Below, in pieces: positions 25,658-52,974 of a DNA stretch of 64,000 nt. This stretch comes from a virus (taxonomy: Duplodnaviria > Caudoviricetes), in IMG/VR virus record IMGVR_UViG_3300021255_002539, positions 1 through 64,000 of that record, one strand, 5' to 3'. Position 1 is the stretch's first letter. Every line of letters starts with the position of its first letter. A model generated the notes under the pieces. It ran no database searches. It saw nothing but the letters and a program-made list of their open reading frames with translations, and was not told the DNA's origin. The translations under genes and the position numbers were made by a program.

Positions 25658-28600
25658 TCAGTTGGATGGGCGCAGTTTGAACTTGTACTTGTTCCCACCC
25701 ATCTTCAGGTAGGAATCGCCAACATCTATGCTTCCCCTCCAATATTGCCCCTTGCTGTCCAGATCTGTTCCAAATCCCAATGTGTGGGTTGGAAGTTTGC
25801 CTGTGTTGGTTTCAGTCAAGTCCAATACCCAAATCTAATCTTCTGGCTTCTTGGCATAGAACTTCGTGAAGGTGCCGTCATTTACAACCTTTACCATGTA
25901 CTGGGTGTTGGTTTCTGGGGTTATCTGATCTCCATGCAAATCCCAATGCAAGTCCTCGAACTCCCACGAGAAGTGGTTGTCGCAAGTTCCTGCCTCCAGG
26001 CTTCTTTGCCAGGCAGATGCTGCGATGATTTCCTGTTCGCCACCCGAGATGTCGTTTCCTGTGGTCGCTTTCGCAACAATCTCGAATGGCGTGTTGAAGT
26101 TGATTTCCTTCACGGTTTCCAGGTAGTTGTCCTGGCTGAAGTTGCTCCACGAACCATCCATCGTCTGTCTGGGTTCTCCATGTGCGATGTAGTGGATGTA
26201 CATGTTCCAATGGGCGTAGTAGGTTGTGTTCTCTGTTACTGGCGTGTTGTAGAATGCCTGCTTCCCCTGTCCATCCTCCGTGCTGGTGAACCACCCAACC
26301 AGTTCCACCTCGTCTGCCAAATTGGTCTGGTCCTGCCTGGTTGCGATTGGCAAGTCCCCAAGCAACTGACCTTCCTTGTATATCCTGGTGATTACATCCT
26401 TGTCGGTTCCTGGGAACTACCCACCATTTACTGCGAACTTGACGACATATTCCCTGGTTGGTTCTGGTTCTGGCTCCTCTTCCTCGGTCTCGTCGACTGG
26501 AAGCTCCATTGCCCTGTTGATGAGGGTCTTGCCCTGGATGTGGATTGACTGGGAATCTGTTCCATAGCACTCGAACTCCAGCATCACCTTGTTGATGTCC
26601 TTGCTGGGCTAGTCGATCTGAACCACCTCGCCATTCCACCTGCTTTCAAGCGCGATGGAGTCGTACAGACCGTTGTTGGGGGTGTCTCTGTAGATTTGGG
26701 TGGGTATCGAGTTGCCACATATCTCCACCAATTCCACTGTCCCGACCGATATGTACTTCTTGTCGATGTACACCCTCAAACGTGTAGTGGACTCGTCCAG
26801 GTTGTTCGGCATCATCTCGCCTTGGAAGTTCAACCTGGTCCTGGTGTCGTCGTCCTGCACCAGACTCGTCCCATTCTCCCTCAATGTCCCAGCAATCCTG
26901 TTGAGGTACTTCGTCCTCGTGGTTGGCACGTTGATGTAGAGGTCGTAGGTGTTGTTGGTGTTGATTCTGTAGATGAATGGAATCGCGTACAAGTCCATCA
27001 AGGTGTTGCCATCTTGGTCGTAGATGAAGTCGTAGAACTCGCTTCCCTCTATGGATGGGTTGCGTTGGGACTTGATGAACACGGTCTGGTCGTCGTATAT
27101 CGTGGCTGGGTTGGAGACTGCGCATGTCACGATGCCTGGGTTGGAGTCGGACTGCGCCACCATTCCACCTGTCTGGAGGATGTCTGTGGATGCCAGTACG
27201 GACACAACCCTGTGATCCTCTATGTCGTCAGTGTCGTCAATCTTGCCACCAGGTATGACGCCAACATCTTGCGTCTCTGGGAACTCTGTTGGGATGAGGC
27301 TGAATGTCTCGAACCCCTCTGCGTACTGGTTCACCTTCCTCGCCAGTATGTCGAAGTAGGAGGACTGCTCCTTGTGATGCATCTCGTCCAAGTGCTTCTT
27401 CAGAACTGTGTCATGGAATGTGTCGTGTAGTCTGTCCTTGAACTCCACCAGACTGTCTATGGAGAGCTGTTGGTATGCGTTCTTGTAGCCAATTCTGTGG
27501 AAGCCAGCATTGGAGAGGACGAAGAAGCCAGAATTCTGCGTCTTCGTGATGAAGTCCTGCATTATCAACCCTGTGATCCTCAATTCGCCAATGCCATCTA
27601 GTTGCTTGTTGTCCTCATATATCTTCTGGATGTCAATCTCCCTCTCTGGGTATATGCTGGCGTCTGGAACCGACAACTCGCGGAGGACAATCCTGCCATC
27701 TTCATCTTTCTGCACCACATACAGAGAGTAGAGGGAGTCGGCAGTGGTGTACATCTGTGGATGCACAATGTTCCACGGAAGCCTCTGCACCACGCCATTC
27801 TCCTCAGATGGGCACTTGAACACAGTATACACCTCATCTTCCTTGGTGTCGTCCTTGAACAGACCATAGTAGTTCTTGTCCACCTCGTTCACATCGAGGA
27901 TGTCGTACATGTCCTTCGTCTTGGATATGTTGTGGAACCTCAACTATGCAGCGTCGAAGAGCGAATCACCGAACAGAATTGTGTTGTATTGCGAGAACGA
28001 CATGTTGCCACCCGGGGAACCCAACCACTTCTCCACATTGAACATGTATGGTTCTTCGCGCTTTCCGTAGATGGAGATTGTCCAATCGTTGGGTTCAGAA
28101 TAGTCCAGGAACACCTTGTCGTTGTCCAATGGAGTTGGGGAAATGGCGATTGAGTTGAATGTCCTTATGCACTGATTCTCGTTTCCCTTCACCAAAACAA
28201 CAATGTTGTCGAAGTTCACCTTGTCCTGGATGTCGTCGTATGCGTAGATGTCGTTGCTGTCGGTGAATAGGACGAACAACCTGTTGCTGTTCTGCTCGTA
28301 TGCCATGTCCTTGATGCCATAGTCCCCATTGCTTGGTCCTCTTATTCCACACCCGAGCAGTGGGACATACCATATGTCGTCTGCGCAATGGATGGCGAAT
28401 GCGTCTGTTATCCTCGATGAGGTGGACAGATCCCGATTGAGCATTCTGAATGTCCAACCATCCTTTTCCTGAATGGTGAATGTCCCAGTGGTGTTCAACT
28501 TGGGTTCATATTGGTATTCGCCCGTATTGCTGCCCAACTTGCTCTGAACCATGGCATCCATCGTACCCTTGTCTGATTGAAACGAATACCATTGGATTGC

Positions 28601-31600
28601 CGTTCCAGATTCAGAATTGCCGACAGTGAACATGTTGCACATCCCATCTGCCACGAACAACGAATTCAACCCACACTTCAATGTCGTGGGGATGTCGTTC
28701 ATGTACCTCACCTTGTCGGCATATGTGAAGTCGTATTTCCCAGAAGTGCTGTTCAACTGAGCGAATATCTCGTCTATCAGGTCAAAGTCCTTTGGTACTT
28801 CCGCGTACTGCCTTCTTGGGGTGTCAAGCATATTGTACAGGTCAAGCAAGGTTTTGTCCCTGAACAACACCACTGGGTTCTTGTCGTCCTTGTAGTCAGA
28901 ATAATCTTCCTCCTCCAACTTCTTCAATATGTTGTAGTAGCCCCTCTCCTGATATGTCTCCTCGTCTATATCCACAACCAACCTGCGGTAGTCGCCCGAG
29001 AACTCGTTATGAAGGTACTGGTTGAAGTTGAGGATGGAGTTTTTGTACAGATCACCGGCGCGGTTGTACCCAAACAGTCCAAATTCCCCATCCCAATCGT
29101 CCTTGTTGCTTGAATGGTTGTTGAATGTTGGAGTTGCGTCATAGAAGATTTCGCATATTTCCACAATAGCGTCCTTCATGCTTTTAATTTTCATCTCAGA
29201 TTCAATCTTTGCCAGGAAATCGTGCAATTTGAGAAGCACATCTTCGAAGTAATCTTTTTCCAATTTCTCGTTCTGACGCACCAGTTCAACCACCTTGTCT
29301 CTGGTCGAGGATGGTATTTCGTTGTCTATGTATTGCCCATTGTAAATCAACTCCTGCCACTTGTGGTTGGTTTCGATTGCCCGAACGGACTTCTGGATGG
29401 ATGTGGCGTCTGGCCAGGTCTTCGCCCTGCTCCAATTGTCTGGCTTGCATATCTCGGCCAGAATATCGGTTTGGACTTCGTAGTGCCTGTTCAAGATGTC
29501 GCCATACACGGTGGCACCAACTTCTGGATCAACAACCCTGAGTTTTACGGGTGCCTTTACTGCTAGTCCATTGAACACAACCGAGCCAGAAGCAACCCTT
29601 ATTGGGATATATACTGCCTCACTCAACTGGTGGTTGTCGAAAACGCAACTCATGTTGGTTCCAATGTCTGTTGGAATTCTGGCGACGGCATAGTTCAACG
29701 CTGGCGTCGAGACGTTGTTGTTCAAGTCGCCCAACCCAACAACAAAGTCGACTGAATTGTTGTTCGTCTTGTCGACCAAATAGTTCCCGTTGATGTACGA
29801 ATACCCATTCAAGTCTCCCAATATCAACTTCCTTTGGAGTACCTTGGCCTTTACGGTGAATTTGAAGACAGTGTATTTCGAACCTTCCTCCTCCCCATCA
29901 AACACATCATAGTCGACTTGTATGTTGCTCTCCCTTTGTGGTTCGTACACTTGGACATTCGATGCGTACAAGCCCCGTCTTCCATCAGGAATGTCCTCCA
30001 ATTGGTAGCATGACCTTGTATCTGTCGTATTGGCCGTCACAGTAACCTGACCATTTGTTCTGTTCACCATGAACTTGATGTGGAACTTCCCGACTGTTCC
30101 AAACCAATCCTCGTTCGTCGACTCCTCGTATCCAGAGAAATAGACATCCACCTCGCGGCTGTCCCCGAAATCTGCGCTTCCAACATCCCCATCGACTTGA
30201 ACATTGAATTCTGAACCCTCCATCAGATTGTATCCCATGTCGATGGTAGTGTCCTCGGTTTCATGCTCGTTCAGAACCAGGAAATCCATATAGGCTTCGT
30301 TTTCGGTAGCATACTCGAACCACCCATCTCCCTGACTGTTCACCGTCTCTTGGTAGTTTGACAGTCCATATGTTCCGTTTGGATTGTCCTCTGTTGGTTG
30401 CCACCTGGGGATGGAAACCGTCGAAACTGATGGTTTCGTTATCTTCCCGGACTTCACCTTCAGAAACACCTGGTTTCTTCCATCGGTGGTGATGTTGTTG
30501 AGCGTACCAAACTCGAAGTTGTTCTGCAGATAGTCCCGTTCAACCACCACATTGGAATATGTGGCGAAGTGTCCACCCATCGTTTTTGGTTGCGTTCCAG
30601 AGAACCGATGTGGCTTCAAGACATAGTATTTCCTGTCGGCCTCGCCTATTGTACTGACGAGGAAGTTCTGAGCCTCAATCTCCTGGTCAAATGCGGAGTT
30701 CTTTGGATCAGGCGTGTACTTGACTTCAGAAGAAGAAGACGACCCCTTGTCCAGGTAAAGCACATTGGAAATGGACGAGCCATCGTTGTTTCCAGTGTAT
30801 TCTATGACATACTTGTTGTTCTGGTCGAACACAGAATGATCCAATATGTTGATGGTTTCTGTCCCATACCTCTTCTTCAAATATGGTTTTTTCGTGGACG
30901 AGCCATATTGTACATCATATACATTTCCATCCAAGAGGACATTGCCATAGTCCTTGAACATCAACTTGCTGCCAGATGGGAGTGGTTTCGACGGCTCCAT
31001 CTGGTCAAGTGGCCATATACCCCCATTCTCCTGCGTGTTGACCTTGATCACATAGTCTACGACTTCGCTTGGAGGTCGTGGTAGGCCGTTGTTGATGCCC
31101 TTGAACATGTTGTCGACAACCTCAGAACCAAGCAACTCACCAAGCTTGTCCAAGACAATCTCGGTCTTCAATTTCGCCAGGGGTTCCCCATCTTGACCAA
31201 TGGATATGTCGTAGTCTATGGTATATGTGGAGTACTTGGTTTCTGGAAGGGAGACGACCTTCACCTTCCCATTGTAGGCATACACAATCTTGTTGTATTC
31301 AACATTGTATGTACCCTTGACAACAGTATATGTCACATCATACGCCAATTCGACATTGGAATCGGATGTGAAATGTGGTATTGCCTTGACCTCGCACCTC
31401 ACATCTCTGACCACAGCGTTCGCCAGTAGGTACTTCTGCTCGTAGTCGGATGTCGGTGTACCATCGTACAGGGATTCAATCAAGTCCTTGTTTTGGTTGA
31501 GGTAGATGTCGAACAGGACTTCGTAGGTGAATTCGTCCCTGTTGGAAACCCTGTTGACCTGTATCGACGGTCCATCGACCAAGGAAATTGAATTGGCATC

Positions 31601-34600
31601 CCCAAATACGCCCTCCATCTTGTCCGAGAACTTCTTGTAGACGAATCCATGTTCGATTTGTCCATTGTCGCCAATATCGAAAGTGTGGTTCTTGAACACC
31701 TGCTGGAACTTACCTTGTGCATCCTGGTCTGGACTGGGGTATCCAGAGACGATGTAGTTGTCCAAGGTAGTCTGGTCAGAGAACATGTCCAAATGCAAAC
31801 CAGAGGCGAGTTCAATTGGAGATGGCGAGTTTTTGGAATTCACCAACATCGCATATACAACCTGGTTCAGGGCATATTGGAGATAGTTTGAAATCAAGTC
31901 GTTCCTGAGCTTATCCACTTGGTATATGGTTGAGAATTGGACATTCACCGCGTGTATCTCGTTGAACTTGAATCTGGAGATGGTCATTGCTTCGAAGTCG
32001 ACGACATATCTCTCGTATCTGGACTTGATGCTCCTGCCCCTGGCCACGAAATGCAAATACTTCTTGTTGTTGTATTCGCTTATGACATATTCCCCCTCGA
32101 TGTCGTCGCTGTTGGCCTTTACACTGTAGGCATATACCTGTCCAGAATCGTCAGAGATTGGGGTCATCTTCAACATCCCAGGAAGGTCGAGTTCTGTGCT
32201 GTTCACCCATGTTCCACTTATCACCACACCTGGTTGTATGGTTGATGTGTTGATGTTGCCTACATCCTGCTGATATGTGATGTTCGATTTCCAGTTTTCG
32301 ATTGGCATCCAAACCGCGTTCAGGTAGTTTTTGGGGCCATCAATGTCCTTGAGCAATATTGCAGTTGATGGATTCAGCAACCTCTCGACGATAATTCCAT
32401 CCCTTATCTCGCCCTCAATATACCTGTCAGAAATTGGATTCAACCCAAGCAAATCGCCTTGTTGGACAATATCGCTTCTGAATACTGGTCCAAGATCTGT
32501 CGTCGTGGTATACCCACTTGAATCCTTTGTCTTCAACCTCAAATTGCTGGTGACTACACCATCCACGCCAATGCTGTACAACTCGACATCGCATTCAGAC
32601 TCCAACTTGCCACTGTACAGAACACCATTCCCCAAAGCTTGAATGCAACCCAACAAGTGGGGGTATTTGCCCTTGAATCCATCTATGAACCTGGCAATGT
32701 ACCAATCCCAGGTTTTGTTGGCGTCGAACTATATGTCGAAATTGTCGTACTCGCACCACTCCGTGGCAACCTTGTCCACTACCTCGGACTGGACGCGCCT
32801 TATCACAGACACCGTGTTTCTTGCATCGTTGGAGAACTTGAACCTCAACCCAGAGTCTGTCCATTGAGACTGTCCATCTTGCGTGAAGTATTGAACCTTC
32901 AACTGGTTGTCGTCCACCTTGGCATACTGGATTTCTGTTCCCCCGTCGTCCAACACGCACCACAGACCATCCAATACGAACATGTTGTCCCTGATGTCGC
33001 AGATGTACTTGTCGTCGAATGTGATGTCACTGGATATCCACAGAACCATGCCATTCTGAATCTTGTATGTGGAGCCATTCAATGTGAATTCGTTGTTCTC
33101 GTCTACCTGTACCTGTCCATCAGCATGGAACAGAACATCGTTGAATTGGTTGTAGTATACGCTCGTTACCCTATATGGAATGTCGTCTGAATACACCACA
33201 TAGTACTCCACATCCCCATACACGAACTTGCCATTCTGAATCTGAATTGGCTCATACTGCATCTGATACTCGAATGTGTTGGTTTTCTCGAAGTATTCTA
33301 TGGCATCATCCAATATCTGGTATTCCCCATACCGATCACCCAACCCAGAGGCAGTCTTGTCGACGACACCCCAATTTCCATCAACGAACACCAACTGGTG
33401 CTGTTCACCATCGTGGTTGGTGTAGAACTTGTCTGTTGTGCAATAATAGGCAGCAGACTTGGTCGTGAAGTTCTTGAAGTCGTTGGGGTCGAAGAACATC
33501 GGACGGTAGAACTGCGACCTTATGAAGTTCTTCAATACTGTTGCATCCTCTGCCCATTTGCCAAACAATTCCCCCTTAGCAGAAGTCCAATCAATGCCTA
33601 TGACCCTGTTTGTGTTCAAGTACTTGGACAATGCTGCGAATTCTGCATTGTACCCAACCTGGAACAAGGTCAAGTCGTTCTGGTGATCCTTCAGGTCGTC
33701 ATATGTGGCATAGTCCTTGAAGAATGGGGATGATTTCACCGAAGCGACCATTTCTTGCTTGGCATTGTTCGCAGACATTATCACATTCACATCGTCCCTG
33801 GACAATGTAATCAAATTCTGCTGCAAATAGGCGTCTATTCCAGGATATACACCTTCACTGTAGCCACCGAGCACCAATGCCGTTTGCACATTCTCGGTTA
33901 TGTAGCTACGTATGGCATCTATGGCGTTCGCTATTGAATCCTCGTATCCATTCAAGGCAAGGGAATTCCACTTACCAGCAGAATAGTCGTTTTCCAAATG
34001 CTCAATGAGGTAGTCCCTGAAATACCTCAACAAGGGGAATCCACCAATCAATCCATCCACCAGTTCAGTGATATAGCCAGTCTTGTAGTTGGACTCGTAT
34101 TGCCCAGATCCACCAAAGTCTGTGGCAAGGGCTGCCTTCAGTGCAGATGCCCCACCCTTAATCAACCACTCAACATCACTTGTGGAGGAGGATGAGGAAG
34201 AAGGCTACTGCGAGAAGGCGTATAATGCTTCACAATAACCCTGAAGCGTGTTCGAACTTGGGTTTTCTTCCCGTATGAACTGAACCATGGACTGGAACCT
34301 GTCGTGCACCAGATCCTGGTTCATTCCCTGGAATTGGATGTTGGGGAATGTGTGACTCAATCTATTGTTCTGGCCAAGCCACCAAATGAACCCATTTCCA
34401 TCCTGGTTGACATGGTTGTTGTAGAGGTAGTATTCGCCGAATGCTGGGAGGTTGTGATCCCCCGAATACACCACTTGCCTATATAGCCAATCAACCAACA
34501 ACCTGACCAATTCGGGGTTGGCGAACAAGAGGCTCTTGAATTGAATCAAGTCCATGCTCACCAGGACATCTATGTATGTGTCGTCAACGCCAGCATATAC

Positions 34601-36010
34601 GCCGAAGTTCTGAGTTCCTCCCCGGAAGTCCAATCTTTTGCCAGTACCTCCAATGATGTAGTCCCAGTACTTGACGCCATCACTGTTCTTCAACGATGTC
34701 CAATATCCAGTCAAATCGCTCTCAGTGTATGTCCACAAGTCGTCGTACTCGATGAACTTGCCTCCCCCGCTACTGCCCAATCCGATGTCGGGTCTTGTCA
34801 ACTTGGACTCGTCCTCGAAAAACGACTGGAACTGCTCTACCTCCTTTTTCCCACTGTAGGAATATGTGATGTCGTTGGTGGCGTTCACCTCTATGTCCCA
34901 AAAGCCATAGTCTGTCATGGCAATCGACACACTGTCCAATTCACGCATCTACTCAACCTTGTCGAATGCCTTGTCTACAGCTATTGTCAATCCATCTACC
35001 ACCACTTGGTCTATCTCAGAAAAACCATATTTGGGGTCGAATGAACTCTCGTTGAGGAAGAAGTACCTGTACTTTGGCTTGTCCGAATTGGACTTCTCCA
35101 CCGCAACGAACAGGAATGTCGTCTCGTCTGCTATGGCATGGAAACTGCAGGTCTTGAACTCCATTTCAGATATGAAGTTTGGGGATTCTGCGCCAATGTC
35201 GTACAAGACCAGGCCAGCCAATTTGCCATTCTCCTGGTATGTGCCAAAACCCAACAGACCACTGTACTCGGAGTCTGGCAAGGTGCAGCACAAGATGTAC
35301 TTGCAGTTGCATATGTGCATGCCCTGGAACGCGGAATTGTCGTAGAATGCGTTCTCGACTATGCTGTTCACCTTGAGTTTGCTTGACTTGAACCACTCGT
35401 TTGCCGAGGCAGCAAGTGGGTTTGGATCCCTCTGACCAGCATCGTCTACAGGGTAGAGTGGAACATCCGAGAATGGGTTTCTGACATCAGAACTGTCGTA
35501 GAACCTGTTCATCGAATCCACAATCTCCATGTTGCTGTACACGACATCCCCATCGTCGTCCCTGATGTTCTGAACTCCATACCACACCGAATTCAGATTC
35601 ACAAACTCGTCAATCCCCTCTGGCAAGTCGAGCTTCTCGATGTCCAGGACAAGATCCCTGGTCTTGAATGTGCCATTGTCCCCATCTATGTCCAACAGCA
35701 ATTTGGTGGAGTTTGGCAGAATTGTGTTCTCGTCCAAACCCTCGACAATCTTGAAGTAGGAATCAGCCAGGACAGTGTATTCGTGGTTGTTGATGCAGTC
35801 AACAACATACGCGATGTCAACAATGTAGTTCGACAATATTGCGTTCAATGTACTTGAACTCGATATCTGATAGTCGTGCAGAATCAAGTCGTCCAAAGTG
35901 GGCTTGAACCCGCCATTCTTGCGTCTATTGGAATCCAATATCACTGACTTGAGAATGTTGCTCTCAACCAACGCCCTCTGCCTTATGTCGTTTGAATCGT
36001 ATCTGGTCAT
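25658..36010 (-). CDS. Giant virion protein (tail fibre/adhesin-like), 3450 aa with 7 TAG=Gln
   Basis: Six track ORFs share one frame with only TAG between them; TGA at 25658; C-terminal InlB-B/Listeria-Bacteroides repeat (YVVKF..NGG...LGDLP...VGWFT...VTENTTYYAHW) and a LamG/ConA-like beta domain; late motif at 36052-59. Confidence 0.8.
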
Positions 36011-36051: not shown

Positions 36052-36083
36052 TATTTACCATTCTTGGCCCGAAATGGTAAATA
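36052..36083. promoter_or_regulatory. Back-to-back divergent late promoters
   Basis: TATTTACCATT-cttggcccga-AATGGTAAATA inverted pair between divergent genes. Confidence 0.75.
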
Positions 36084-36091
36084 ACGATGTC

Positions 36092-36520
36092 ATGGCAGAA
36101 GAAAAAGCAGAACAACAAAAGACCAGAAGTGGCGGTGGATGCTCAGGTGGTTCAGGTGGAGCTGGAGTTGGGGAATACTCGGCGTCAGATGGTCAGTGCC
36201 ACGAAAACCCAAAGACCCCACTGTTCAAGTTGGAGATTGAGGAGAACAACCTCCCAGAGAACTGGTGGGACAAGCTCCCTGACTTCGATCCAAGAATTTA
36301 CGACGCAATAGCAATGGAACAGGCTGCCGCCTGCGTGACGTACATATTCGACGGCCTCCCAGACATCCACGAACTGGAGAACATGATTGAGTCCAGGAAG
36401 AACCCAAAGACCTGCCCCAGGTTAAAGACCCAAATTCCCAGAACCCAGGTCATAATTCCAAAAGAAGTGAAATGTGAGGTCAAGATTGATTCCTTCATCA
36501 AGAAAGATCAGACCTATTAA
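36092..36520 (+). CDS. Hypothetical late protein
   Basis: MAEEKAEQQ start just after GGTAAATA; Gly-rich N-terminus. Confidence 0.65.
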   Translation: MAEEKAEQQKTRSGGGCSGGSGGAGVGEYSASDGQCHENPKTPLFKLEIEENNLPENWWDKLPDFDPRIYDAIAMEQAAACVTYIFDGLPDIHELENMIESRKNPKTCPRLKTQIPRTQVIIPKEVKCEVKIDSFIKKDQTY

Positions 36521-38181
36521 CCGCATTGGAAGTTCATCTGCGCTTGGTTTGGAACCTTCGTCTGAACATCCTTGAACTCGTCCATCGTCACCTTCTGAAT
36601 CAACCCATCGCGTATCCTCTTCACAGCAAACGACCTGTCGTTGAATGTGACGTGTCTGGGCAAGGCCGAGAAGTCTGGAACCCTGTCTGTGAATATGCTC
36701 TGATGGTCAAACCTCTTGGTTGGGTTCTTCAAGTTGAGCCAATTGAACCAAAGCGACATTATGATTACATTCTTGCGGTGCATGTAGTCAATCTCGTTGC
36801 ACATCTTGAGGAACAACTTCTTGTTGATGGGGGCGAAGATGTGTGGCTCGTAGAAGTAAATGTGCTCTCGGTTCCCAACAAACCTGTCAAGCGTTTGAAC
36901 CAAAAGACTGTCCCATGAATTGTTTCGGCAATCCCGCTTCATTCCATCCATGAATGCCTAAGTCTGCTTGTACTCGAACACATACCTCGGGGCGAAATCC
37001 TCCCAATCGGTCCTCTTCGTCACCATTATGTCGTCAGAACAAAAAAGGAAATTGCTGGACAACTTGGGTATCTTCTCTATAGCAGTCCTTATCTTGTGTA
37101 TGATGTTCGCATCCTTGTTCGACTTCGTGATGTCAGGGGCGTAGATGTGGTGTACCCTCGGGTTCCTTATCAAGGGGTTCTCGCCAACGACATAGATGTT
37201 GTCCACCCAATGGTCGCAGAACTTCAATATTGATGTTATGGATATCTTAATCTCAAGGTTCTTGTACTTGCTCCCCTTGCCCAGAACATACACGACATCG
37301 TGGCGAATTGGCTTCTTGAGGTTGTACTGGAACAACCTCTCTGTGTCGGGGTCTATCTTTGGCCGAGATTCCCATGTCAATTGATCCAATCTGACGAACT
37401 TGGAACGGGATTTCGGAATCTGAACCACCCTCTTTTCAACACCGCCATCAACTGGCTCTTCTCTGAACAACCCAAAGCACTGTCCAATTGACTTGCCACC
37501 AGACAGATTCTTGACTATCCCAGCAACAGCATTGTCGTACCTCGGGCCAATCTCGTACTTGTAGTCGCCATGTGGCATGGTCTCAAGTGGAACGACAGAA
37601 TTGACGCGCTTCCCAACGCAATACTTCGTGCAGGGAACCAACTGGTAGCCATTGAGGTGGCAAAGATAGAGATATGTCCTGTCGTCGTTGCATGTGTCAA
37701 GGACTGGCTTCTGAACGAACTTCTCCCAATTGTCAAGCATCTTCTTCGTGAACAGCGAATAGCAGGACATAACATAGTTGTCCATGTTGATGGTTCTGGA
37801 TTGGTTCGATGTGATTGGATGCTCCCTGTTGTTGTCGTTGAAGTCCTTCATCCTCGCCTCTATGAAGTCCTTTGGGAGAAGGGCGTCGTCGTCAATGTCT
37901 ATGATGATGTCGTCGTCCTCCAAGTATGGCAGAACAGGAAACACCTTCTTCATGGACTTCGTGTTCTCCTCCACCCAATTGAGTATTACCCGATTGGATG
38001 TCATTATCAACTAATACAAGTCCTTCGGCAAATCAGCCTCCCAATTGGGGAATTCCTGATGGGACAATGTGAGGTAGATTCGGTCAGGAAGGACCGAATT
38101 ATCAAGTACAGAATTTATGACCTTGACGCAGTTCGTTATGCGCCTTGGAAACGATGTCATGCAAATGTTTATAGTGGACAT
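36517..38181 (-). CDS. GT-A fold glycosyltransferase + Stealth-like phosphotransferase fusion, 554 aa with 2 TAG=Gln
   Basis: MTSFPRRI...PDRIYL...KKVFP...IDIDDD...CNDD; then DVVYVLG..S.Y.N.EIK.SI.SI.KF...IYVVGE...NFLFCSDD; GGTAAATA at 38201. Confidence 0.7.
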
Positions 38182-38218
38182 ACATATGATCCTTTGGGAG
38201 TATTTACCATTCACTTTC

Positions 38219-38977
38219 TCATTTGTCCTTGCCACGGAACTCGATGTTGAGTTTCTTCAATGGGTCGATGAGCCTGCCAAGGGGCGTGTACCTGAACTTG
38301 CGCTCCATCGCGTTCACGTCCTTCGGGAAGCACTTGCCACCATATCCCAACTTGCCATCTGGACCAGGGACTTGGGTATGGACGTCGTTGATGTATGTGG
38401 ATGCGAGGATTCCGGAGCGAACGCGCTCGTAGTCCATTCCCATCTTCTGGCAGAGGTCGTAGATGCAGTTGAAGTAAGTCACCTTCAACGCGCCAAACAC
38501 GTTGTGGGCGTACTTCACCATCTCAGCTTCCTCTGAGGTCATCTCCACGTACTTCTTGCCCACGAAAATCCTCTTGAGAATCTCGCGATGCTCTGGGGCG
38601 CCAGCGAACACCATAGGCTGCCACTTGAAGTCCTCGATGTATGTGCGCTCGGTCAAGAACTCCGGCATGTGGTAGACAATCCTGCCAGTGAGATCCGACA
38701 ACTTCTTGGATGTCCCGGGGAGAATCGTGGTTCTTATCCATATTGGACGACCCTTTGGCAAGCCATTTATGATGTCAATCAATGGCGTCAAGTCCTGTGT
38801 CCCATTGTCCTCTGTCGGGACATGTATTTGGATGAAATATGCATCGCAGTCAGACACATCGTCGTGGAAGCCCTTGTATGGGTCGGAGATGCGCAGTTCG
38901 CAGTCTGGATTGTTATTTTCCAGCCAGTTCTTCAATGCTCCACCAACGAAGCCACAGCCTATTATTCCTATTTTCAT
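38219..38977 (-). CDS. ugd: UDP-glucose/GDP-mannose 6-dehydrogenase (short phage-type form)
   Basis: IGIIGCGFVG, VPT, PEFLTER, AEMVKY..N.F.ALKVTYFN, GYGGKCFPKD. Confidence 0.92.
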   Translation of the reverse strand: MKIGIIGCGFVGGALKNWLENNNPDCELRISDPYKGFHDDVSDCDAYFIQIHVPTEDNGTQDLTPLIDIINGLPKGRPIWIRTTILPGTSKKLSDLTGRIVYHMPEFLTERTYIEDFKWQPMVFAGAPEHREILKRIFVGKKYVEMTSEEAEMVKYAHNVFGALKVTYFNCIYDLCQKMGMDYERVRSGILASTYINDVHTQVPGPDGKLGYGGKCFPKDVNAMERKFRYTPLGRLIDPLKKLNIEFRGKDK

Positions 38978-39705
38978 AGTAAGTGCTCCTTATTATTTTC
39001 CTTAAATTCTCTTAATCTATTATTATAGTCTTCAATGCTTTTATTCTATCCTCTACTCTCAGAACCATACCAAAAATGAGATATGCACTTCCAAATATCC
39101 ACATCCTTGTATTTCACACCATTTGCTGTAATCCACAAATGAAAATACCATCCAGGGTCAGCGAAATAAGTATTTTCAAACTATTTGTTGATATTTAATG
39201 ATTGGATATTTATGCCAACACTAACATCTGATTTATGGTAGGATATTTCCCTACCATTAAATGAATCCAAGTTAAAATACATAAGCATCGGCTATATTCT
39301 CCCGCCAAACAAACAAGCATCCTTTGTAAGTAATGTCCAAGACTGGTTTACATAATTTCCAACGACTTGAAAATTAGTATCGCATATTTCAGACAAATCA
39401 CATTTTACAATGGTATCGTTTTCAACAATCAATAATTCTTCATACTCCAAATGATTTTTTATAATGTCAAGTATTTTTTGAATTGCCGGAGCATGAGACG
39501 ATATATTATATGATTTCTTGAAGTTCAATATTGTAATGTTGTCATAATTGAATTTACTATCCAGGGTAAAATCTTTGTCAGATGTTGAAACTATCCACAA
39601 GTCAAATTTATCTTGACTGTTGTATTTATACAAGCTTTGAATAAAACACTCGTTGGTTATTCTATCAGCATTAAAGGTTATTGTTGCTATTAGTCGTTTC
39701 TTCAT
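38974..39705 (-). CDS. Putative glycosyltransferase, 243 aa with 3 TAG=Gln
   Basis: Read-through ends at TGA overlapping the ugd ATG (ATGA); H..AI..I, LLIVENDTIV, RI*PML.Y.N, DPG. Confidence 0.6.
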
Positions 39706-39720
39706 AAAATTCACTCTGGT

Positions 39721-40473
39721 TTATACACATACATTCTATGCTTTGCACTTTGTGTCGTCATTGTAGTTCCACGAAAAATCATTGAAGTGCATGAAATACA
39801 TTGATTCATCCATATTGGGAAAACATGTATTCTATATGTCTTGGTGCGTTATGGTTGCATCTCTAAACTTCTTTTTCAATGTCTCAAACTGAGATTTGAC
39901 AACATCATTGTCAAAATGCCTATCATAGATTGAAAATATGAATTTCCTCTTTGACGTCCAGTAGATGTTTGACCACGCCTCCTGGCACTGCAACTTGCAT
40001 AGACTGTCAAATGAAAACATGTTCGTGTCAAAACCAATGGCGCACTTGTCTGACGATTTATTGTCCATGTGCATTATGCCAATCATGTCATTGTCCAGTA
40101 TCTCATCGGAAAACGACTTTATTGGATATGTGTCGCAGTCAATGTAGATTCCACCAACCATTGAAACCAGATACACCTTGAATCTCTCCAGGATTTCCAT
40201 AATGTTCTTTACGGTTTTCCCTTGAACACCCTTGTATATCTTATCGTTAGAATTCACCTTATAATGGTGTATTGCATGCCACAATGCCTTGTCCTATGGG
40301 TTTTCCACATTTTCAAGTTCTTCTCTGGAAAGGGATTCAATCTTATCCTTTGTGTACAGAACCCTGTTTATTTCATAAGAAGGATTCATTTCCCCATATG
40401 CAGTGAGGACATGTTCGTAATAATCAGGAACATTGTCCCCAAGCCATATAAAATGCAGACTTTTGTCAATCAT
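39721..40473 (-). CDS. GT32-like DXD glycosyltransferase, 250 aa with 3 TAG=Gln
   Basis: MIDKSLHFIWLG...NPSYE...GGIYIDCD...H....SW; AAGGAGG SD. Confidence 0.8.
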
Positions 40474-40495
40474 GTGAAACTTACCTCCTTCATTT

Positions 40496-42634
40496 TCATT
40501 TTTCTATTTTTGATTTCAGCATTGCCTTCAAATCATCCAATACTGGGCTGTCTTTGCATTTGGAAATCACCCCAAGAAACAGTTCAAAGGACTTTTCCCT
40601 CTTCTTGTTGTCCGTGGTAGTCATTATGGAGTTTGAATGCACAGTCCTCATATAGCATTGTTCCTGAATCTACATGCACCTTTTGGCGCAGTTGAACACC
40701 ATTGGGGTGAACACAACATCCTCGTGGATTGCATTTTCAACGAAGGAAATGCAGTTCTCTCTCAGCATGTGCCTTTTCATCACAGAACAACAAGCAGATT
40801 CAATATATGACTTGTTCTTCTTCAGTTTGAAGTACAATGTATTGCCATCCAGAACCTTATCAACATATTGATTTATGTCCCCCTTCAATGAATAATACCG
40901 CTCATATCCCTTGGCAGTAGTATCATCCTCCTACTGATTTACCACTTTGAAGGTGAAACGAAGAAAATCCAGGTCGTTCTTCTAGCAAAGAGACATCCAC
41001 TTGTGTACCACAAACTTGTTTGCAAGGTAATCGTCAACATCAAGGAATTGCACATAATCCCCGGTGGCGTTCTTCAAACCAATGTTTCTTGGATTTGAGC
41101 AACATCCGCTGTTTTTGGCAGTCTTGAACACTTTTATGTTGGAATACCTCTCTGAATATTCCTTCAGAATTTTATTCGAGTTGTCCGTGGAGCAGTCGTC
41201 AACGCATATGATTTCAATGTTGTCGTAAATCTAATTGAGCACTGAACCAAGGCATCTGTCAATGTACTTCTCAGCATTATACACAGGTATGATGATTGAT
41301 AGCTTCAAACTTCTATTCGCCTATGTCGAATTGGAATATGTTGCCACCATATCGTGCAATACTCGCACTATGACATGCTTGGGCTAATTGGAGAATTTGT
41401 ATGTGTTCTTTTGTATCTATTCATAAAACCCATTGTAGTCAATAAGTCCCTTCATCAACTCATTTGCGTTCTCTTTCTTGTTCTTGACAAGATGCAAATT
41501 GCATAATACCTTGAACATTGGATTTGAAAAGTCGAGCCAAGCGAGAAGTCCGTTTTCGTCGTCGTAAATGTACTTGTTCATCCACGGATAGAACACAGAA
41601 ACCATAAAGTCCCTTTGACCATATGATCTATTTGCCATATCTCCATGGAAAAAATGGCATACATCAACATAGTTTGCTCCCATTAGGCTCTTGTTGGAAC
41701 TTTTGCTCAATCTTCTCATTACATAGTGAACATATTTGCGTTTACATAGTTTAGGCAACCATATGGCCGTGTTCTCAATGTCAGTAAGTTCAGTCCAAAA
41801 TAGGATATCACCTCCACCAAGTGGAAGGAAATTGAAATAATCTATGTACTAAAGAGTATTTTTCTCTATGCAAAACACACCACCTGGAGCGCATGTGTTC
41901 AATATTCGATCAATACTACAATTGGACAATTGGGACGAAAATGATTTTTTGTGGCGTTTTGTCTCCTTGTCGTTTTCATCCAAATACACTATGTCGTTAA
42001 ACCCCTGTGTGAACAAACACTTGTCCAAGGCATCGTAGACTTGCTTGAACCAGTCCTTATCCTCCAATGGGGAAATGTCGGAGTCCACGAACATCAATTT
42101 CTCGTACCTGGCACGTTTAGCTGCTATATTCCACAAATGCTCCTTTTGGAACAAGTACTTGTGGGAGTCATTGCCATCTATCCTTATATATTGAATCTAC
42201 TTTGGAAAGTCCTCCTTGGAAAATGTGAATACCCCATTGAATCCAAGCTCAATGAACATCATTTCCTTTGGTAGATGCGATTGCTTCATCCAGCAATTCA
42301 CTGCCTTTTTAGTGGCGACTTTCCTCAACTCATTTATGCCAGCATCGTAGAATACAGAAACCATCGTCATGTCCAGATAATCGTGTTGCTTGGGGTCAAA
42401 ATCAACCAAGTCAAACTCTCTGTTCCATGTCATCTTGACTTGTGGCTTGGACATCACAAATTGGATAAAGGATTCGGGCAAATCAATCATTCTATTGGGA
42501 AACAATGCTGTGGGCATCTTAACATACACCAACTCAGGCTTGTTGGTGTTGGTCATCAACTCGTCTATATCCTTTATCAAAGAATCAACATCCTATTTGT
42601 ACTCCAACTGGACAACATTCTTTCTACCATCCAT
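40496..42634 (-). CDS. Two-domain glycosyltransferase (GT-A-like + GT2), 712 aa with 10 TAG=Gln
   Basis: FQKEHLWNI...FVDSD...GGGD; then KLSIIIPVYNAEKYIDRCLGSVLN*IYDNIEIICVDDCSTDNS...RNIGL..ATGDYVQFLDVDD...HED; GGTAAATA at 42663. Confidence 0.85.
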
Positions 42635-42702
42635 TTATGATAAATCTCCTTCATTCAAAGGGTATTTACCATTTCCAATCCAATTGCAATTGCACACCAA
42701 AA

Positions 42703-43593
42703 TTACTTACGGGAACTTATTTCCATCAACATCTTGGAATACTCCACTACACCATAATCATTCAAATGCCTGCAATCGCACATCCATTCTGCCGGTGGAA
42801 CAAACGATTTTATTTCATTGTGTTTCTGAGACAATTCCCTGCAAGTCTTAGTCAAAACACTATCTACAACCAAGAACTTGAAATTTGGTTTTGCCAAGAT
42901 ATCCTTTACAGCATCATATTCCCCATAATGAACATGCTCCAAATCCATGGTAACTATCGTCTTGTCCTCGTTTTGCTACGAGGAAAGTTCTCGCATCATT
43001 GGAAGATGGTGATATGAATGATGACCGCTTACTCCAAGCGTGGCAACATTGACACCGTACTGCCGATACATGTATTGGGAAAGTCCCATATGGTTTACAT
43101 TATTGCAGGTTTGGGCGACACTTGAACCGAGTATGACAATTGATGGTGGCACATAGTCGTACTATATCGGTTGATCAGATTCAATTTCCATCTTCTTGAC
43201 AAGTCCATCTGGAGGAAGACATATTTGAAACTTATCGTACTTGTTTAAGTTCCATATCTTCGCCTAAATCCATGTCTTGTCAGATTGGCAATCAAGAGGG
43301 GAATAACCGTTGAGTTCGCTCAACAAATCCCACCTATTGTCCTGACTGGAATATCCCAGGACGGTGCATTCCACCTTCTGACGCTTGGATATTCGATAGA
43401 AGTCATCTGAAAAATGACAAGTATACCTTAAACTCCATGACTTTGATTTAGTGCGAATGACTATAAACAAACCACATCCATATCTAAGAATCTTGTCTAT
43501 ATGCGTGTTTCCACTATTGCCATCATATCTATAGAAATTGCTTGATTGTTTCAACCTTCCCCAAAGGAATTTCACATCCACATTTGTTTTCAT
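42703..43593 (-). CDS. Hypothetical protein of the glycan island, 296 aa with 3 TAG=Gln
   Basis: Joins 43264-43629 and 42703-42948 in frame; ends at TAA. Confidence 0.6.
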
Positions 43594-43609
43594 ATTTACC
43601 CCCACATAG

Positions 43610-45460
43610 TCATCCATGCATAAATTCATTGTAATTCAACGGTCTTTGACTATAAGTCATATAATCATTGTGTATTGTGCCTTTGTTTGCAAACATCCAC
43701 TCCACCAATCTCTTGGTGTTGTTTGTATCCACATATGTAAACAACTTGTGCGAAAAATCGAATTTCCCGGTTGATGCATCCAACAACTCCTAAATCTTGG
43801 ACAATGCTTGTTCCTATGTCTTGCAATAGGACATGTGAACATAATCCAAATGTTCAAGATGATAGTGGTTTAACGAGGCATTCAAATCATTGATCCCAGG
43901 TATATATATGACAGATGGTTTGTCCATATATGCCATCTCAAATGAATTGGATGAGAAATCAGTTACAATCACATCACTTTCCACCAATATATCCTGAAAT
44001 GTATCGGTTTTTGGAATCTTCACCCAAGATGGTATCTTGAACCTGGATAGTTTATTGAGTAATTTGGCATGGGGAAGAAACACAATTGACACCCCAGAAT
44101 CATGCAATTGTTTCAACTTCTCACTGGCCAGGAAATTGTTGATGTCATTGAAGTATTTGGATGTTCCACCACCTCTTCGCCAATGAAATGATATAAAAAC
44201 CTGCTTTTTGCGCTCTACAGATGAACGCAAGGTGTTTTTCTCCAATAATGTGTCATGCCTGGGAAATCCAAGAAGAAGGGGTGTCAATTTTCCTTTAGAA
44301 TATCTTGTCAACACCTTGTATTCCCCCCTTGAAGTAGCCAACATATATTTCGCTTCACTTGATATTGTTCCTGAAATATAGAACGAATCGTCATATATCG
44401 TAGATGTGACTCCATGTCCCATGAATATGGTTTTATACCTGTTGCTCATCAAGGTTGTTTTGATGTCTGTGTTTGGAACATCCTTTGAAAACAGAACAAA
44501 AGTGGCGTTTTTTATGATAAACCCAATATGTTTCCCCTCAAATGGATATAGATTAAATCCTTCTGACTTCAGCCTTGTCCAATCCTTGCTTTTGTTGGAT
44601 AAAATGAATGTTGCCTTTATGTTTGGATAATCATGGGAAATGCGTTTATACAAGAACTCTCCGTTGTCTCCGGCCTTGTCGAATGAATCAAATATAACCA
44701 CATTGAACAACGAGTCTTCAAATGACTGTGGCATCACCTAATTGTATCTCAGTTCAATCTTGGGAAATGCATCTTTGTTTGATAAATATTGATGTGTCTT
44801 TCCCATTGGAAATACACTTCCCCTCTACATCATATTCCTTTTGGCATACCCATTGTGTGCGGATATCTTCTTGGATGGCAACACCCAATACCCATTTGAA
44901 ATCATCAACATTGTATATAGAAAATCGTCGTTGTATGTGTGAATAATTTCATCACATAGAATCTTGTCGTAGTTCGCAAGCATCTTTTTCTGGAAGATGG
45001 ACATTGCCGTTACATTGTTATATACAACACCGTTATACAATGGCAAATTCAAATGCCACTTTGGATTGGAACCGCCAGATATTGGAAATCTGAAATCTTC
45101 TTCTGCAAATTCGTTCAACCGAATTTCAATATAGTCGTTTGGTATCACAAAATCATCATCGACATTTAATATAATGTCCTCGTCGTCAATCAATGGCAGA
45201 ACTGGGAACACCTTCTTCATAGTCTTTGTGTTTGGACCTTCCACCCAATTTATCTTGAATGTTGGTTCAATTTTCGACAACTATACCAAATCAGAGGGTA
45301 AATCAACCTCCTTGTTCGGAAACTCAACCACTGCCAAGTTCAAGTATATGATGTCTGGCTTAACTGTGTTGTTCAATATAGACTTTACGACCTAATAGCA
45401 ATTTCCAATCCTCTTTGTCCAAGAGGTCATCGTCACCACAACCTTGTGCCCGTTAAACAT
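43610..45460 (-). CDS. GT-A glycosyltransferase + TagF-like CDP-glycerol/ribitol phosphotransferase fusion, 616 aa with 6 TAG=Gln
   Basis: VVVTMTSWTKRI...NVDDD; then KAGDNGEFLY, FMGHG, GFPRHD, F.PH, QDILVESDVIVTDFSSNSFEMAYMDKP; GGTAAATA at 45496. Confidence 0.85.
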
Positions 45461-45579
45461 GTCCTATAGTTTCCTTTGGTCTACCCAATTGTTGGTATTT
45501 ACCATTTCACATTAAAATTCAAGATTGACCAATTTCTAGATCAACCTTGGATTCTTCCAACAAAACTTGGCTTATGCCA

Positions 45580-46287
45580 TCACTTCACTGGCTTCTGCTT
45601 GACATATATCTTGCAGATGCAGGGTTCGCCAATCTTCTTGTTCTTGATGTAGTCATCGCAATGGCACTTGGTTCCCTCTCCAGCTGGTTGGCAAGGACAA
45701 TGACCATCGTTCTTGTCGATTGCGTCCAGAATCTTGTTGACCTGCTTGGTGGTCAAGGATTCGTTCAACCGAGTGACATATGCATCCTCTGGTTCAGGTG
45801 TTGGCTCTGGGGTTGGCTCTGGATCAACAGCTGGCTTCTTGGCGAACACAGTATCTATTGTGGTAATCATGTTCTTCGCCCCAGCGGCACCAGTCTTCTT
45901 GTCTCTGAGGTCGTTTCCTGTGATTGCCTTGTCAACCACAATCTTGCCCTTTGCGTCGTAGAGGGTGATTCTGAACCCAGGATACTGCTTGAGACCACCC
46001 TTCTTGAAGATCCAGTCATGGAGTGCCACCCCCTTGTCCTTGTCTCCACTGTACTGGAACACAAAGTAGACGTCCTGCTTCGCCATCCAGTTCTTGAATG
46101 TGGCAGTCATCATGCACTTCTCTGCCTGAACGCAATAGCTGCATGCATCGCCATTCGACCATACCGTGACGATGAACTTGCCTTCCTGCTTGGCCTTCTC
46201 AAGTGCCTTGTCGTAGTTCTTGTTCCACTCGCCGACCTTTGGTGTCTTTGTTGAGCGGAGTTTCACGAAATCTGACGTTGTTCCCAT
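45580..46287 (-). CDS. Thioredoxin-fold + ferredoxin:thioredoxin reductase catalytic-subunit fusion
   Basis: W..NYDKAL.KAK.EGK...WSNGDACSYC; (PEPT)n linker; GHCPC...KCHC...PCICKIY; AAGGAG SD. Confidence 0.75.
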   Translation of the reverse strand: MGTTSDFVKLRSTKTPKVGEWNKNYDKALEKAKQEGKFIVTVWSNGDACSYCVQAEKCMMTATFKNWMAKQDVYFVFQYSGDKDKGVALHDWIFKKGGLKQYPGFRITLYDAKGKIVVDKAITGNDLRDKKTGAAGAKNMITTIDTVFAKKPAVDPEPTPEPTPEPEDAYVTRLNESLTTKQVNKILDAIDKNDGHCPCQPAGEGTKCHCDDYIKNKKIGEPCICKIYVKQKPVK

Positions 46288-46318
46288 TGTTTTCTCTCCT
46301 TGTATGTATATGTGTATA

Positions 46319-46642
46319 TCAAGCTTCGTCGGGGCAACTATCGCAACCAGCTGCTTCGTCAGCAACCTCGTCTGGATCAGAATATGCCCTGAACTTCACG
46401 CCGTTTAGGCTTTCCTTGGAGTCCTCCAGAACCTTGCTGACGAAATCAATGTGGTCTTTGGCTGTGCGGACCAAAGCATTCTTAGAAGTACTCGTCAGTC
46501 CGATTGAGTAGAGGACATCCTTGAGCATGTCCTTGGTGTCCTTGACTATGTACGCCAAATGACTGATATCGTATAACGCATAACTGCGCTCGGGCGCTGG
46601 AAGTGGATTTGCGTCTTTGTCTTTGTTGTCTTTTTCTTCCAT
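46319..46642 (-). CDS. Hypothetical protein
   Basis: Co-oriented ORF with TATAAT upstream. Confidence 0.55.
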   Translation of the reverse strand: MEEKDNKDKDANPLPAPERSYALYDISHLAYIVKDTKDMLKDVLYSIGLTSTSKNALVRTAKDHIDFVSKVLEDSKESLNGVKFRAYSDPDEVADEAAGCDSCPDEA

Positions 46643-46689
46643 TGTGGTATTTGTTGTCTTTTCCATATACCACAATTATACGACAGCAG

Positions 46690-46890
46690 TCATGTCAAGA
46701 CAATGGAATTCACGTCACGATTCCACTTTTTCGCATACTCGAACTGGCCACCACCAAACCCATTGCTGAATGTACCTATGCTGACATCCTCCACCTCGCC
46801 GAAGTCCTCGTAGTCCCTACTGTTGTTGATTACCACCTTGAGGTCATCTGGGTATGAATCCAATATCGCCTTTAGTTCGCGTACAGTCAT
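46690..46890 (-). CDS. Small phage protein (MTVRELK..L..YP.D..V type)
   Basis: Recognisable N-terminal pattern; AAGGA SD. Confidence 0.6.
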   Translation of the reverse strand: MTVRELKAILDSYPDDLKVVINNSRDYEDFGEVEDVSIGTFSNGFGGGQFEYAKKWNRDVNSIVLT

Positions 46891-46925
46891 CACTTGATCC
46901 TTCCGAGTTGTTGTATCTCTCTCCA

Positions 46926-47381
46926 TCACATGTCCATAGGCGGAATGCTATTGGCGACTTCCTCCGGGATGGCAATCGTCCCCACGGAAGTCACATGCGT
47001 TGGAAGGGAAATCTTGACCATCTTGCCTTTGTGACCACTCTTCCTACAGAACTTCGAATGCTTAAGGTTGTACAGAACATTGTCAATCGCGTCTATTGAC
47101 TCACCGTCCACAAGGTACTCGAAATCCCAGAGTCTGAACAGAATAGATGTATCCCAATCTGGGATTGACCTTGTTTCTGTCCGTATTGAACCATCGCTTT
47201 CGACAATCTTCACAGGAATTGTCTCGTAAAGCTCATGGTTGCCATCTGCTTTCTCTGCCAGTTTCAACCCTCTTTTGGCAAGTGTCTTGAGCCTCTTCAA
47301 CAAGGGCTTCATCTGGGCGTAGATGTCGTTTCCCTCCTTCTGAAGGGCATCGTACTTTTCCTTGAATTGCTCAACTGTCAT
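46926..47381 (-). CDS. Hypothetical protein
   Basis: GAGGAG SD. Confidence 0.6.
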   Translation of the reverse strand: MTVEQFKEKYDALQKEGNDIYAQMKPLLKRLKTLAKRGLKLAEKADGNHELYETIPVKIVESDGSIRTETRSIPDWDTSILFRLWDFEYLVDGESIDAIDNVLYNLKHSKFCRKSGHKGKMVKISLPTHVTSVGTIAIPEEVANSIPPMDM

Positions 47382-47401
47382 ATTTGTTTTCTCCTCTTTG
47401 A

Positions 47402-48149: not shown

Positions 48150-48160
48150 AATAGACCCCC

Positions 48161-48451: not shown

Positions 48452-48468
48452 GTTGTATGTCTCCTTTG

Positions 48469-48711: not shown

Positions 48712-48749
48712 TGGCGTGTCTCCTCTATATTATACCACTTTGATTTGTG

Positions 48750-49040: not shown

Positions 49041-49041
49041 T

Positions 49042-52973: not shown

Positions 52974-52974
52974 G

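Follow-up and report, generated by a model that had tools for sequence, protein, structure and literature searches.

What does a megaphage make with a compact set of glycosyltransferase-type genes, and on which surface does the product end up? The question is raised by a locus in the first 64 kb (the window, the whole stretch of DNA analyzed here) of a 414,060-bp virus record in the IMG/VR database (IMGVR_UViG_3300021255_002539; Duplodnaviria, Caudoviricetes), where seven minus-strand genes (g1 to g7; 36517 to 45460 after correction of their starts) form an island near the gene for a protein of 3450 amino acids (aa). An earlier, sequence-only reading of the window had proposed the island as a late-expressed system that builds a capsule-like polymer on the virion. 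The observation is real and was mostly well read, and the interpretation is partly supported: our tentative preference is for a cytoplasmic, late, lineage-variable phosphoglycan set on the virion, and virion decoration is the best-supported, if unproven, function of the island. The locus pairs enzymology of the capsule-polymerase kind in a recoded megaphage with a layout of a conserved anchor and a variable cassette.

The record has direct terminal repeats, a GC content of 0.48, a tRNA array and a tmRNA (ARAGORN), and T4-like morphogenesis genes for a portal, a gp6-like baseplate wedge, a sheath stabilizer, and head closure; the source is a megaphage of the gut or rumen type. Under translation table 11, the segment from 36.5 to 45.5 kb contains short open reading frames (ORFs) only, whereas once TAG is translated (code 15), seven minus-strand ORFs in a common orientation occupy 36517 to 45505 with gaps near zero, bearing out the claim that the island is visible only after recoding. 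Matches of the island proteins to Pfam, NCBIfam, and PHROG profiles extend across in-frame TAG codons, and TAG-468 of g3 aligns with a glutamine present in all four aligned GT2 structures (3bcv, K4CP, and GalT1 among these). Because of this alignment and the precedent of code 15, glutamine is the supported assignment of TAG in this phage. ARAGORN, run with default and with relaxed settings, predicted no CUA-anticodon tRNA, and very low stringency gave noise only. In a crude ORF set, genes near the promoter motif (see below) and all others had similar TAG densities (4.4 versus 4.0 per 1000 codons); therefore, the notion that TAG tracks late genes is not used as evidence here.

The enzymatic character of the island is clearest in g1 and g7, which carry paralogous GT-A modules fused to a TagF-like domain in g1 and to a Stealth-like domain in g7. 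Both fusions had been called from the sequence alone, and both assignments hold at the profile level. The ATG at 45505, previously taken as the start of g1, is part of a promoter motif; the gene starts at ATG 45460, consistent with the N termini of its homologs. Its GC content is 0.38, and counted from this start it contains 6 in-frame TAG codons, against 7 in the ORF originally called. Its Glyphos_transf match (PF04464; residues 268 to 605) scores 70.7 bits against a cut-off of 22.1, and a profile of its family recovers Cps3D (3.5e-12), TarL (2e-11), TagF (1e-7), and KfiA (2e-3). KfiA is the GT45 heparosan GlcNAc transferase, and its structure (PDB code 5z8b) is matched by the GT-A modules of the g1 and g7 family profiles with E values of 2e-3 to 1e-4. 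Across the g1 family, a D-D-D triplet and an HG motif are invariant and a second histidine is nearly so. The catalytic histidines of TagF are His444 and His584; H479 (the second histidine, numbered in the 631-aa g1 ORF) aligns with a conserved histidine of TagF, TarL, and Cps3D, and H364 of the invariant H-G would fit the first TagF histidine, but in the HMMER alignment it is shifted by a few residues in TagF and TarL.

The start of g7 is at 38181 (M19), and its GC content is 0.47. Stealth_CR2 is matched at 32.5 bits (Pfam cut-off, 39.4), and Stealth CR1, CR3, and CR4 gave no Pfam match at E ≤0.01 (the four regions CR1 to CR4 are PF17101, PF11380, PF17102, and PF17103). A 13-sequence profile of the family recovers GNPTAB (8e-7), CpsY (2e-5, over CR2), and KfiA (1e-4), and its invariant S-D-D aligns with the N-D-D of CR2 in GNPTAB and CpsY. 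An E-P-H-I-x-x-P-x-N-K block conserved downstream in the family could be a divergent CR3. Compared with the Stealth hexose-1-phosphate transferases (meningococcal CsaB/CsxA; CpsY of M. tuberculosis, PDB code 8j2n; animal GNPTAB, PDB code 7s6n), the C-terminal half of g7 thus shares the CR2 core with its acidic pair and differs in the regions that go undetected and in being fused to a GT-A module. As a separate observation, one TAG codon falls at an equivalent site when the GT-A modules of g1 and g7 are aligned (D-L-x-Q-L). Their orthologs and homologs show H, K, R, E, D, or S at this site; gene conversion and coincidence are both possible.

The nearest known parallels of g1 are bacterial. GT-A/TagF-like polymerases alternate the transfer of a glycosyl unit with that of a hexose or polyol phosphate, can start de novo, and yield poly(oligosaccharide phosphate) (PMC5974469). 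The two-part plan of g1, an N-terminal GT-A domain of the Mg type with a DXD motif ahead of a TagF-like domain, is that of the group 2 capsule polymerases CslB, Cps1B, Cps12B, and Ccs2 (PMC5974469), and Cps3D, which the g1 profile matches, belongs with Cps7D to the TagF-like/GT-B polymerases of Gram-negative pathogens (Litschko et al. 2018, PMC5974469). In contrast to the group 2 enzymes, g1 belongs to a lytic-type megaphage and is preceded by a late promoter, its GT-A module is KfiA-like rather than K4CP-like, no TPR domain was detected in it, and its island lacks KpsMT/Ctr export genes and linker genes. A capsule locus would be recognized by ABC export genes; the neighbors of g1 are phage late genes. 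The bacterial relatives that were found cover one of the two g1 domains. The sequence-only reading had looked to CDP-glycerol or CDP-ribitol as donors; the GT-A/TagF-like polymerases include hexose-phosphate transferases (PMC5974469), and the argument therefore does not require CDP-glycerol. Elsewhere in the genome, a 1599-aa ORF (162638 to 167437) contains a CTP-transferase-like match, which we do not count as a CDP-glycerol enzyme.

Expression of the island is well argued to be late, on the logic of a promoter motif. The sequence ATGGTAAATA occurs in seven exact copies in the window, where shuffled sequence would give 0.04, and TGGTAAATA occurs 46 times genome-wide against ~4 expected, an enrichment of ~12-fold, mostly 10 to 55 nt upstream of a start codon on the same strand. 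We take the core of the motif to resemble the T4 late promoter TATAAATA. Genome-wide, the genes behind it include those for the portal, baseplate wedge, sheath stabilizer, and endolysin, as well as several giant proteins, in agreement with the late-type label first given to it. In the island region, the motif precedes g1, g3, g7, a small divergently oriented gene (through a copy at 36074), and the 3450-aa gene. The positions first reported for it (45496, 42663, and 38201) are the low ends of exact minus-strand ATGGTAAATA copies; the further copy said to overlap the start at 43593 exists as a one-mismatch variant, GGGTAAATATG. Sigma-70-type promoters in the island did not exceed chance.

We then asked how this arrangement is kept in other phages. 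Among GenBank/INPHARED phages, there was no DNA match and no tblastn match for g1 or g7. In IMG/VR, single-sequence scans returned nothing, whereas alignment-based scans found relatives. More than 100 metagenomic homologs of g1 and g7 were recovered, many on contigs of 136 to 380 kb, and among these homologs the GT-A module is variously partnered with Stealth, GT8, GT2, pyruvyl-transferase, GT92, or TOD1-like domains; the 540-aa GT-A/Stealth-like fusion of the g7 type occurs commonly on metagenomic contigs of very large size. In other clades of jumbo phages, the GT-A module also exists by itself (240 aa), after tail-fiber-like genes and once beside a full-length Ugd. Three IMG/VR megaphages, L019 (201 kb), L020 (434 kb), and L021 (418 kb), share both the motif and TAG recoding with the present phage. 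All three have an ortholog of g7 (61 to 67% identity) with the small conserved gene beside it (74 to 81% identity over 115 aa), and a giant late gene is kept with the pair in each, so that the proposed synteny check came out in favor of linkage; orthologs of the 3450-aa protein (30 to 34% identity) follow g7 in L019 and L020.

Upstream of g7, each relative has different genes: a GT-A, GT92, and pyruvyl-transferase fusion in L019; two genes like the N-terminal part of g3 and a short UDP-glucose dehydrogenase (UGDH)-like gene in L020 (the latter a 252-aa ortholog of g6 with 67% identity); and a GT2 and GT-A fusion in L021. The locus therefore consists of a conserved core (g7) and a swappable part. 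The cassettes of the relatives are TAG-rich and have GC contents of 0.30 to 0.42; the three loci stand at 0.42 to 0.46, and this genome stands at 0.48. The g1 to g5 cassette is likewise low in GC and rich in TAG, and such a composition would fit an exchange between phages that share the recoding. In L019, a 449-aa protein of YadA-head adhesin repeats (15458 to 16807, minus strand) is encoded between the small gene and the giant gene, which is consistent with a fiber or adhesin neighborhood. A further phage glycan island of a different make-up was seen in L024 (121 kb, very AT-rich, TAG-recoded), where three genes adjoining the terminase gene (8027 to 14175) code for a 1431-aa GT2/DUF5672/GT-A fusion, a TupA-like ATP-grasp protein, and an NAD-dependent epimerase.

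The 3450-aa protein is rich in D, N, S, T, G, and Y, has no transmembrane helix, and shows a sub-threshold Listeria-Bacteroides repeat near its C terminus (E 0.004). Downstream of its gene come a head-closure gene and further late genes. The small gene, which is convergent with g7 and divergent from the giant gene, has no family match. On the reading that we favor, the giant protein would be the first candidate for the acceptor or carrier of the glycan. To call it a virion protein outright, as had been done, was an over-reading, for that role is inferred from its late promoter, neighbors, and composition only.

In the explanation that we favor, the island would encode a late, wholly cytoplasmic pathway to a capsule- or teichoic-acid-like glycan with phosphodiester linkages, which would most likely end up on the phage particle. 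In this pathway, g7 would lay down a common sugar or sugar-phosphate unit, and the variable g1 to g5 cassette would extend and tailor it into a lineage-specific polymer, with g1 acting in the manner of the bacterial GT-A/TagF-like capsule polymerases by alternating glycosyl with hexose- or polyol-phosphate transfer. Nucleotide sugars would come from host pools; the island has no sugar kinases or nucleotidyltransferases. None of its seven proteins has a predicted membrane helix, and its genes include no membrane-anchored primer transferase, flippase, ABC exporter, or ligase, which extends the earlier remark on the missing flippase and exporter to membrane proteins in general. Because nothing can export the product, it would encounter its target in the cytoplasm as virions are being assembled and would exit at lysis. 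It is the combination of soluble enzymes, missing primer and export functions, late promoters, a morphogenesis neighborhood, and conserved linkage to a giant gene that favors a cytoplasmic product released together with the virion.

There is a parallel for such a system in the O-glycosylation of mycobacteriophage virions (Che8, Corndog, and Myrna; Freeman et al. 2023, as cited in PMC12619734) and in the glycosylated fibrils of giant viruses: in each case, the virus is proposed to decorate its own particle by means of soluble transferases whose genes lie among late or structural ones. The island differs from the mycobacteriophage type in its phosphodiester-polymer type of chemistry, in that no C-terminal acceptor tags were found, and in a candidate target that is a giant fiber instead of the capsid or tail tube.

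Several observations weigh against placing the product on the virion. No glycan acceptor was found: a Ser/Thr-rich C terminus occurs in one of 361 ORFs, and that one lacks a structural annotation. Attachment of the polymer to the virion had been over-read, and we still infer it. The two poly-Ser tracts of the 3450-aa protein are absent from its orthologs, and the protein itself, apart from the sub-threshold repeat, has no match in Pfam, PHROG, or PDB and no recognizable virion domain. An oppositely oriented gene divides the island and the giant gene into distinct transcription units, and the large neighbor in L021 is not detectably homologous to the 3450-aa protein. Late expression is a prediction from the promoter motif, and in g7, the one Stealth region matched falls below the Pfam cut-off. 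Finally, the published view of variable glycosyltransferase clusters in jumbo phages is that they modify the host surface (PMC7824862 and PMC11662467).

That view supplies the main rival, which we regard as unlikely. Here, the enzymes would alter or overproduce a capsule, teichoic acid, or O-antigen-like polymer of the host by way of its lipid primers and exporters, so as to block superinfection or keep progeny off the debris of lysed cells. Besides the published reading, which includes UGDH genes with the polymorphic clusters, it is in keeping with a cassette that differs between close relatives, as if tracking the surface types of their hosts, and with the bacterial relatives of the TagF-like domain, which come from Neisseria, Campylobacter, Ruminococcus, and actinobacteria. 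Yet the island is without any of the membrane, priming, and export components listed above; exclusion functions would be expected early, whereas the island stands behind the late-type promoters of virion and lysis genes; and what stays with the locus in relatives is one small late gene and one giant late protein, not envelope genes. The clusters described for "capsular polysaccharide modification" in jumbo phages (Iyer et al. 2021, PMC7824862) are alike in being variable and multi-transferase, and the present island differs from them in its missing kinases and nucleotidyltransferases, its late-type, soluble character, and its tie to a giant late gene.

Less probable still would be a free polymer, that is, an acidic phosphoglycan of which chains are started de novo in the cytoplasm and, unattached, freed at lysis to act as a matrix, a decoy, or a noncovalent ligand of lectin-like fiber domains. 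The start of GT-A/TagF-like polymerases without an acceptor in vitro (PMC5974469), the negative searches for acceptor tags, and the lack of a priming enzyme in the island all agree with it, but a product tailored by multiple transferases and the conserved linkage to a giant gene of structural type exceed what a bulk polymer would need, and literature searches gave no precedent. Decoration of modified phage bases against restriction, for which the known and diverse DNA-hypermodifying phage glycosyltransferases would be a model (as cited in PMC12619734), is very improbable because no thymidylate-synthase-family hydroxymethylase (PF00303), the kind of gene whose linkage the sequence-only reading had named as pointing to DNA modification, is encoded anywhere in the 414-kb genome, and because the genes lie behind late promoters within a morphogenesis block, their TagF-, Stealth-, and SGNH-like domains are of polymer-building or tailoring types, and seven genes with up to eight transferase domains far exceed the known needs of DNA glycosylation.

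Table 1. Island genes and associated features, with coordinates in the window
Feature	Coordinates	Strand	Remarks
g1: KfiA-like GT-A (DDD) + TagF-like phosphotransferase domain, 616 aa	43610..45460	-	Pfam and family profile
g2: beta-sandwich + SGNH/GDSL-like esterase or O-acyltransferase (predicted), 296 aa	42703..43593	-	Motifs, low-confidence model
g3: KfiA-like N-terminal remnant + weak GT-A (DSD) + GT2, 712 aa	40496..42634	-	Pfam and PDB matches
g4: GT32-like DXD glycosyltransferase (probable), 250 aa	39721..40473	-	Sub-threshold Pfam match, D-C-D motif
g5: no family, 243-246 aa, GC 0.30	38974..39714	-	Stop overlaps g6 start (ATGA)
g6: mini UDP-sugar-dehydrogenase-like, 252 aa	38219..38977	-	NAD-binding and catalytic central domains only
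g7: KfiA-like GT-A + Stealth-like hexose-1-phosphate-transferase domain, 554 aa	36517..38181	-	Family profile, orthologs
Small conserved gene, 148 aa, probable start 36092	36074..36520	+	Own late motif at 36074
3450-aa late protein, fiber- or adhesin-like by composition	25658..36010	-	Opens only with TAG as sense (7 TAG)
Late-promoter-like motif ATGGTAAATA(CC) before g1	45496..45505	-	Exact copy; its ATG is not the start codon
Late-promoter-like motif before g3	42663..42672	-	Exact ATGGTAAATA, 28 nt upstream of g3 start
Late-promoter-like motif before g7	38201..38210	-	Exact copy, 19 nt upstream of ATG 38181
Late-promoter-like motif before giant gene	36052..36061	-	Exact copy, 41 nt upstream of ATG 36010
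Terminator-like hairpin between upstream TAG-free block and island	45520..45549	-	11-bp stem followed by T-rich tail

The remaining island genes are listed with g1 and g7 in Table 1. Their order and most of their domain calls stand as first given, with the exception of g5 as a glycosyltransferase-like protein and g6 as a full Ugd enzyme. The protein g2 (start at 43593, M13) had been left as unknown and has no Pfam match; its motifs and a low-confidence model now suggest an SGNH/GDSL-like protein. Only two homologs were found, and a Ser-Ser pair and a D-x-R-H motif are invariant in the three sequences. The model (predicted local distance difference test [pLDDT] score, 57.7) has an N-terminal beta domain and an alpha/beta domain, and Foldseek matches it to the GDSL lipase 4lhs (1e-9), the acyltransferase SsfX3, and CE2 acetyl-xylan esterases (range, 1e-9 to 1e-5; TM score, ~0.4). 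With moderate confidence, we predict a glycan O-acyl esterase or transferase.

For g3, previously called GT-A plus GT2, the GT2 domain is secure: Glycos_transf_2 (PF00535) is matched at 122 bits over residues 446 to 626, PDB matches include K4CP and 3bcv at 1e-22, and a D-x-D-D motif aligns with K4CP, 3bcv, and GalT1. The gene has 10 TAG codons. Its N-terminal ~440 residues define a small family of five database homologs, two copies in L020, and two paralogs in this genome, the paralogs of the second domain lying at 124636 to 125790 and 128120 to 129709 of the genome. Positions 1 to 84 of the family profile align as well with the beginning of the KfiA-like GT-A domain in both g1 and g7, and g3 itself retains a shortened form of this stretch, followed by a weak beta4GalT-type motif and a DSD triplet. 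Structural matches to the N-terminal model are to GT-A proteins only; because the model is poor (pLDDT, 50), the GT-A assignment of g3 is weak. In the family, the 84-position stretch has no DXD and stands ahead of a different transferase-like domain, and the retained piece might serve for docking and not as a catalytic domain.

The GT32-like call for g4 falls just short of the Pfam threshold (Gly_transf_sug, 22.5 bits versus a cut-off of 23; TcdA_TcdB N-terminal motif, 19.7 bits), and with the D-C-D motif present, a GT32-like transferase is probable; no relatives of g4 were found in the relative loci fetched. No tool supports g5 as glycosyltransferase-like: it had no match in Pfam, NCBIfam, or PHROGs or with the island profiles. 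The g6 protein (GC content, 0.52; zero TAG) matches the N-terminal and central domains of UDPG_MGDP_dh and covers positions 71 to 279 of the 413 in the NDP-sugar dehydrogenase model. Like Ugd/UGDH, it keeps the NAD-binding fold with GxGxxG and the central domain with the catalytic Cys-x-x-Lys-Asp (G-G-K-C-F-P-K-D), but it ends 25 residues past the catalytic cysteine, and the whole C-terminal UDP-binding domain (PF03720) is missing from the protein and from the genome. The proposal that Ugd supplies UDP-glucuronate is not supported for such a 252-aa protein. It belongs to a short-form family with 187 cluster representatives at <1e-30, those listed being mostly 245 to 280 aa long, and the catalytic Cys, Lys, and Asp and the GxGxxG are conserved across 12 short-form members. 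Some members, labeled "UDP-glucose 6-dehydrogenase" at their source, are encoded on contigs of 85 to 281 kb.

A few observations concern the surroundings of the locus. The terminator-like hairpin (Table 1) is located between the stop of a thioredoxin-like gene (45580) and the late motif of g1. Adjoining the TAG-rich island, 45580 to 53742 holds ~12 minus-strand genes with zero in-frame TAG, among them those for the thioredoxin-like protein, which has a Cys-rich tail, and a DUF6926 protein. Further upstream is a TAG-free N6 DNA methylase gene (55183 to 56733), separated from this run by a 285-aa ORF with one TAG (53697 to 54554). A 454-aa ORF at 13552 to 14916 of the window (GC content, 0.30; 7 TAG codons) matches a transposase PHROG. 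Outside the window, six otherwise unlike small proteins share their first 17 residues, M-K-I-R-T-D-Y-V-S-N-S-S-S-S-S-F-(I/V); their genes lie at 89910 to 90461, at 380449 to 381381, and, for four in tandem immediately upstream of the portal gene, at 409857 to 412686. The shared residues could be an N-terminal module or tag, and their poly-Ser could even be a site of phosphoglycosylation.

As to what the locus means for these phages, whole biosynthetic islands stay invisible in them unless TAG is read as glutamine. Once it is so read, the locus provides a conserved anchor gene (g7) with swappable cassettes, and it brings to light short UGDH-like enzymes that form a large family; the island enzymes, being predicted to be soluble, can be expressed and assayed without a phage in culture. 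A bolder reading, which we advance as a doubtful one and for its two parts jointly, is that there are "encapsulated" megaphages, in which a late cytoplasmic phosphoglycan on a giant fiber is diversified into glycan "serotypes" by exchanged low-GC, TAG-recoded cassettes, and that the mini-UGDH enzymes would oxidize a substrate other than a free UDP-sugar. Glycosylation of virions, which alters immune recognition, is known experimentally for a few actinophages and for giant viruses. If the virion is indeed the site of the product, the island would add a third case, a phosphodiester-linked, capsule-like polymer made by a phage for its own particle.

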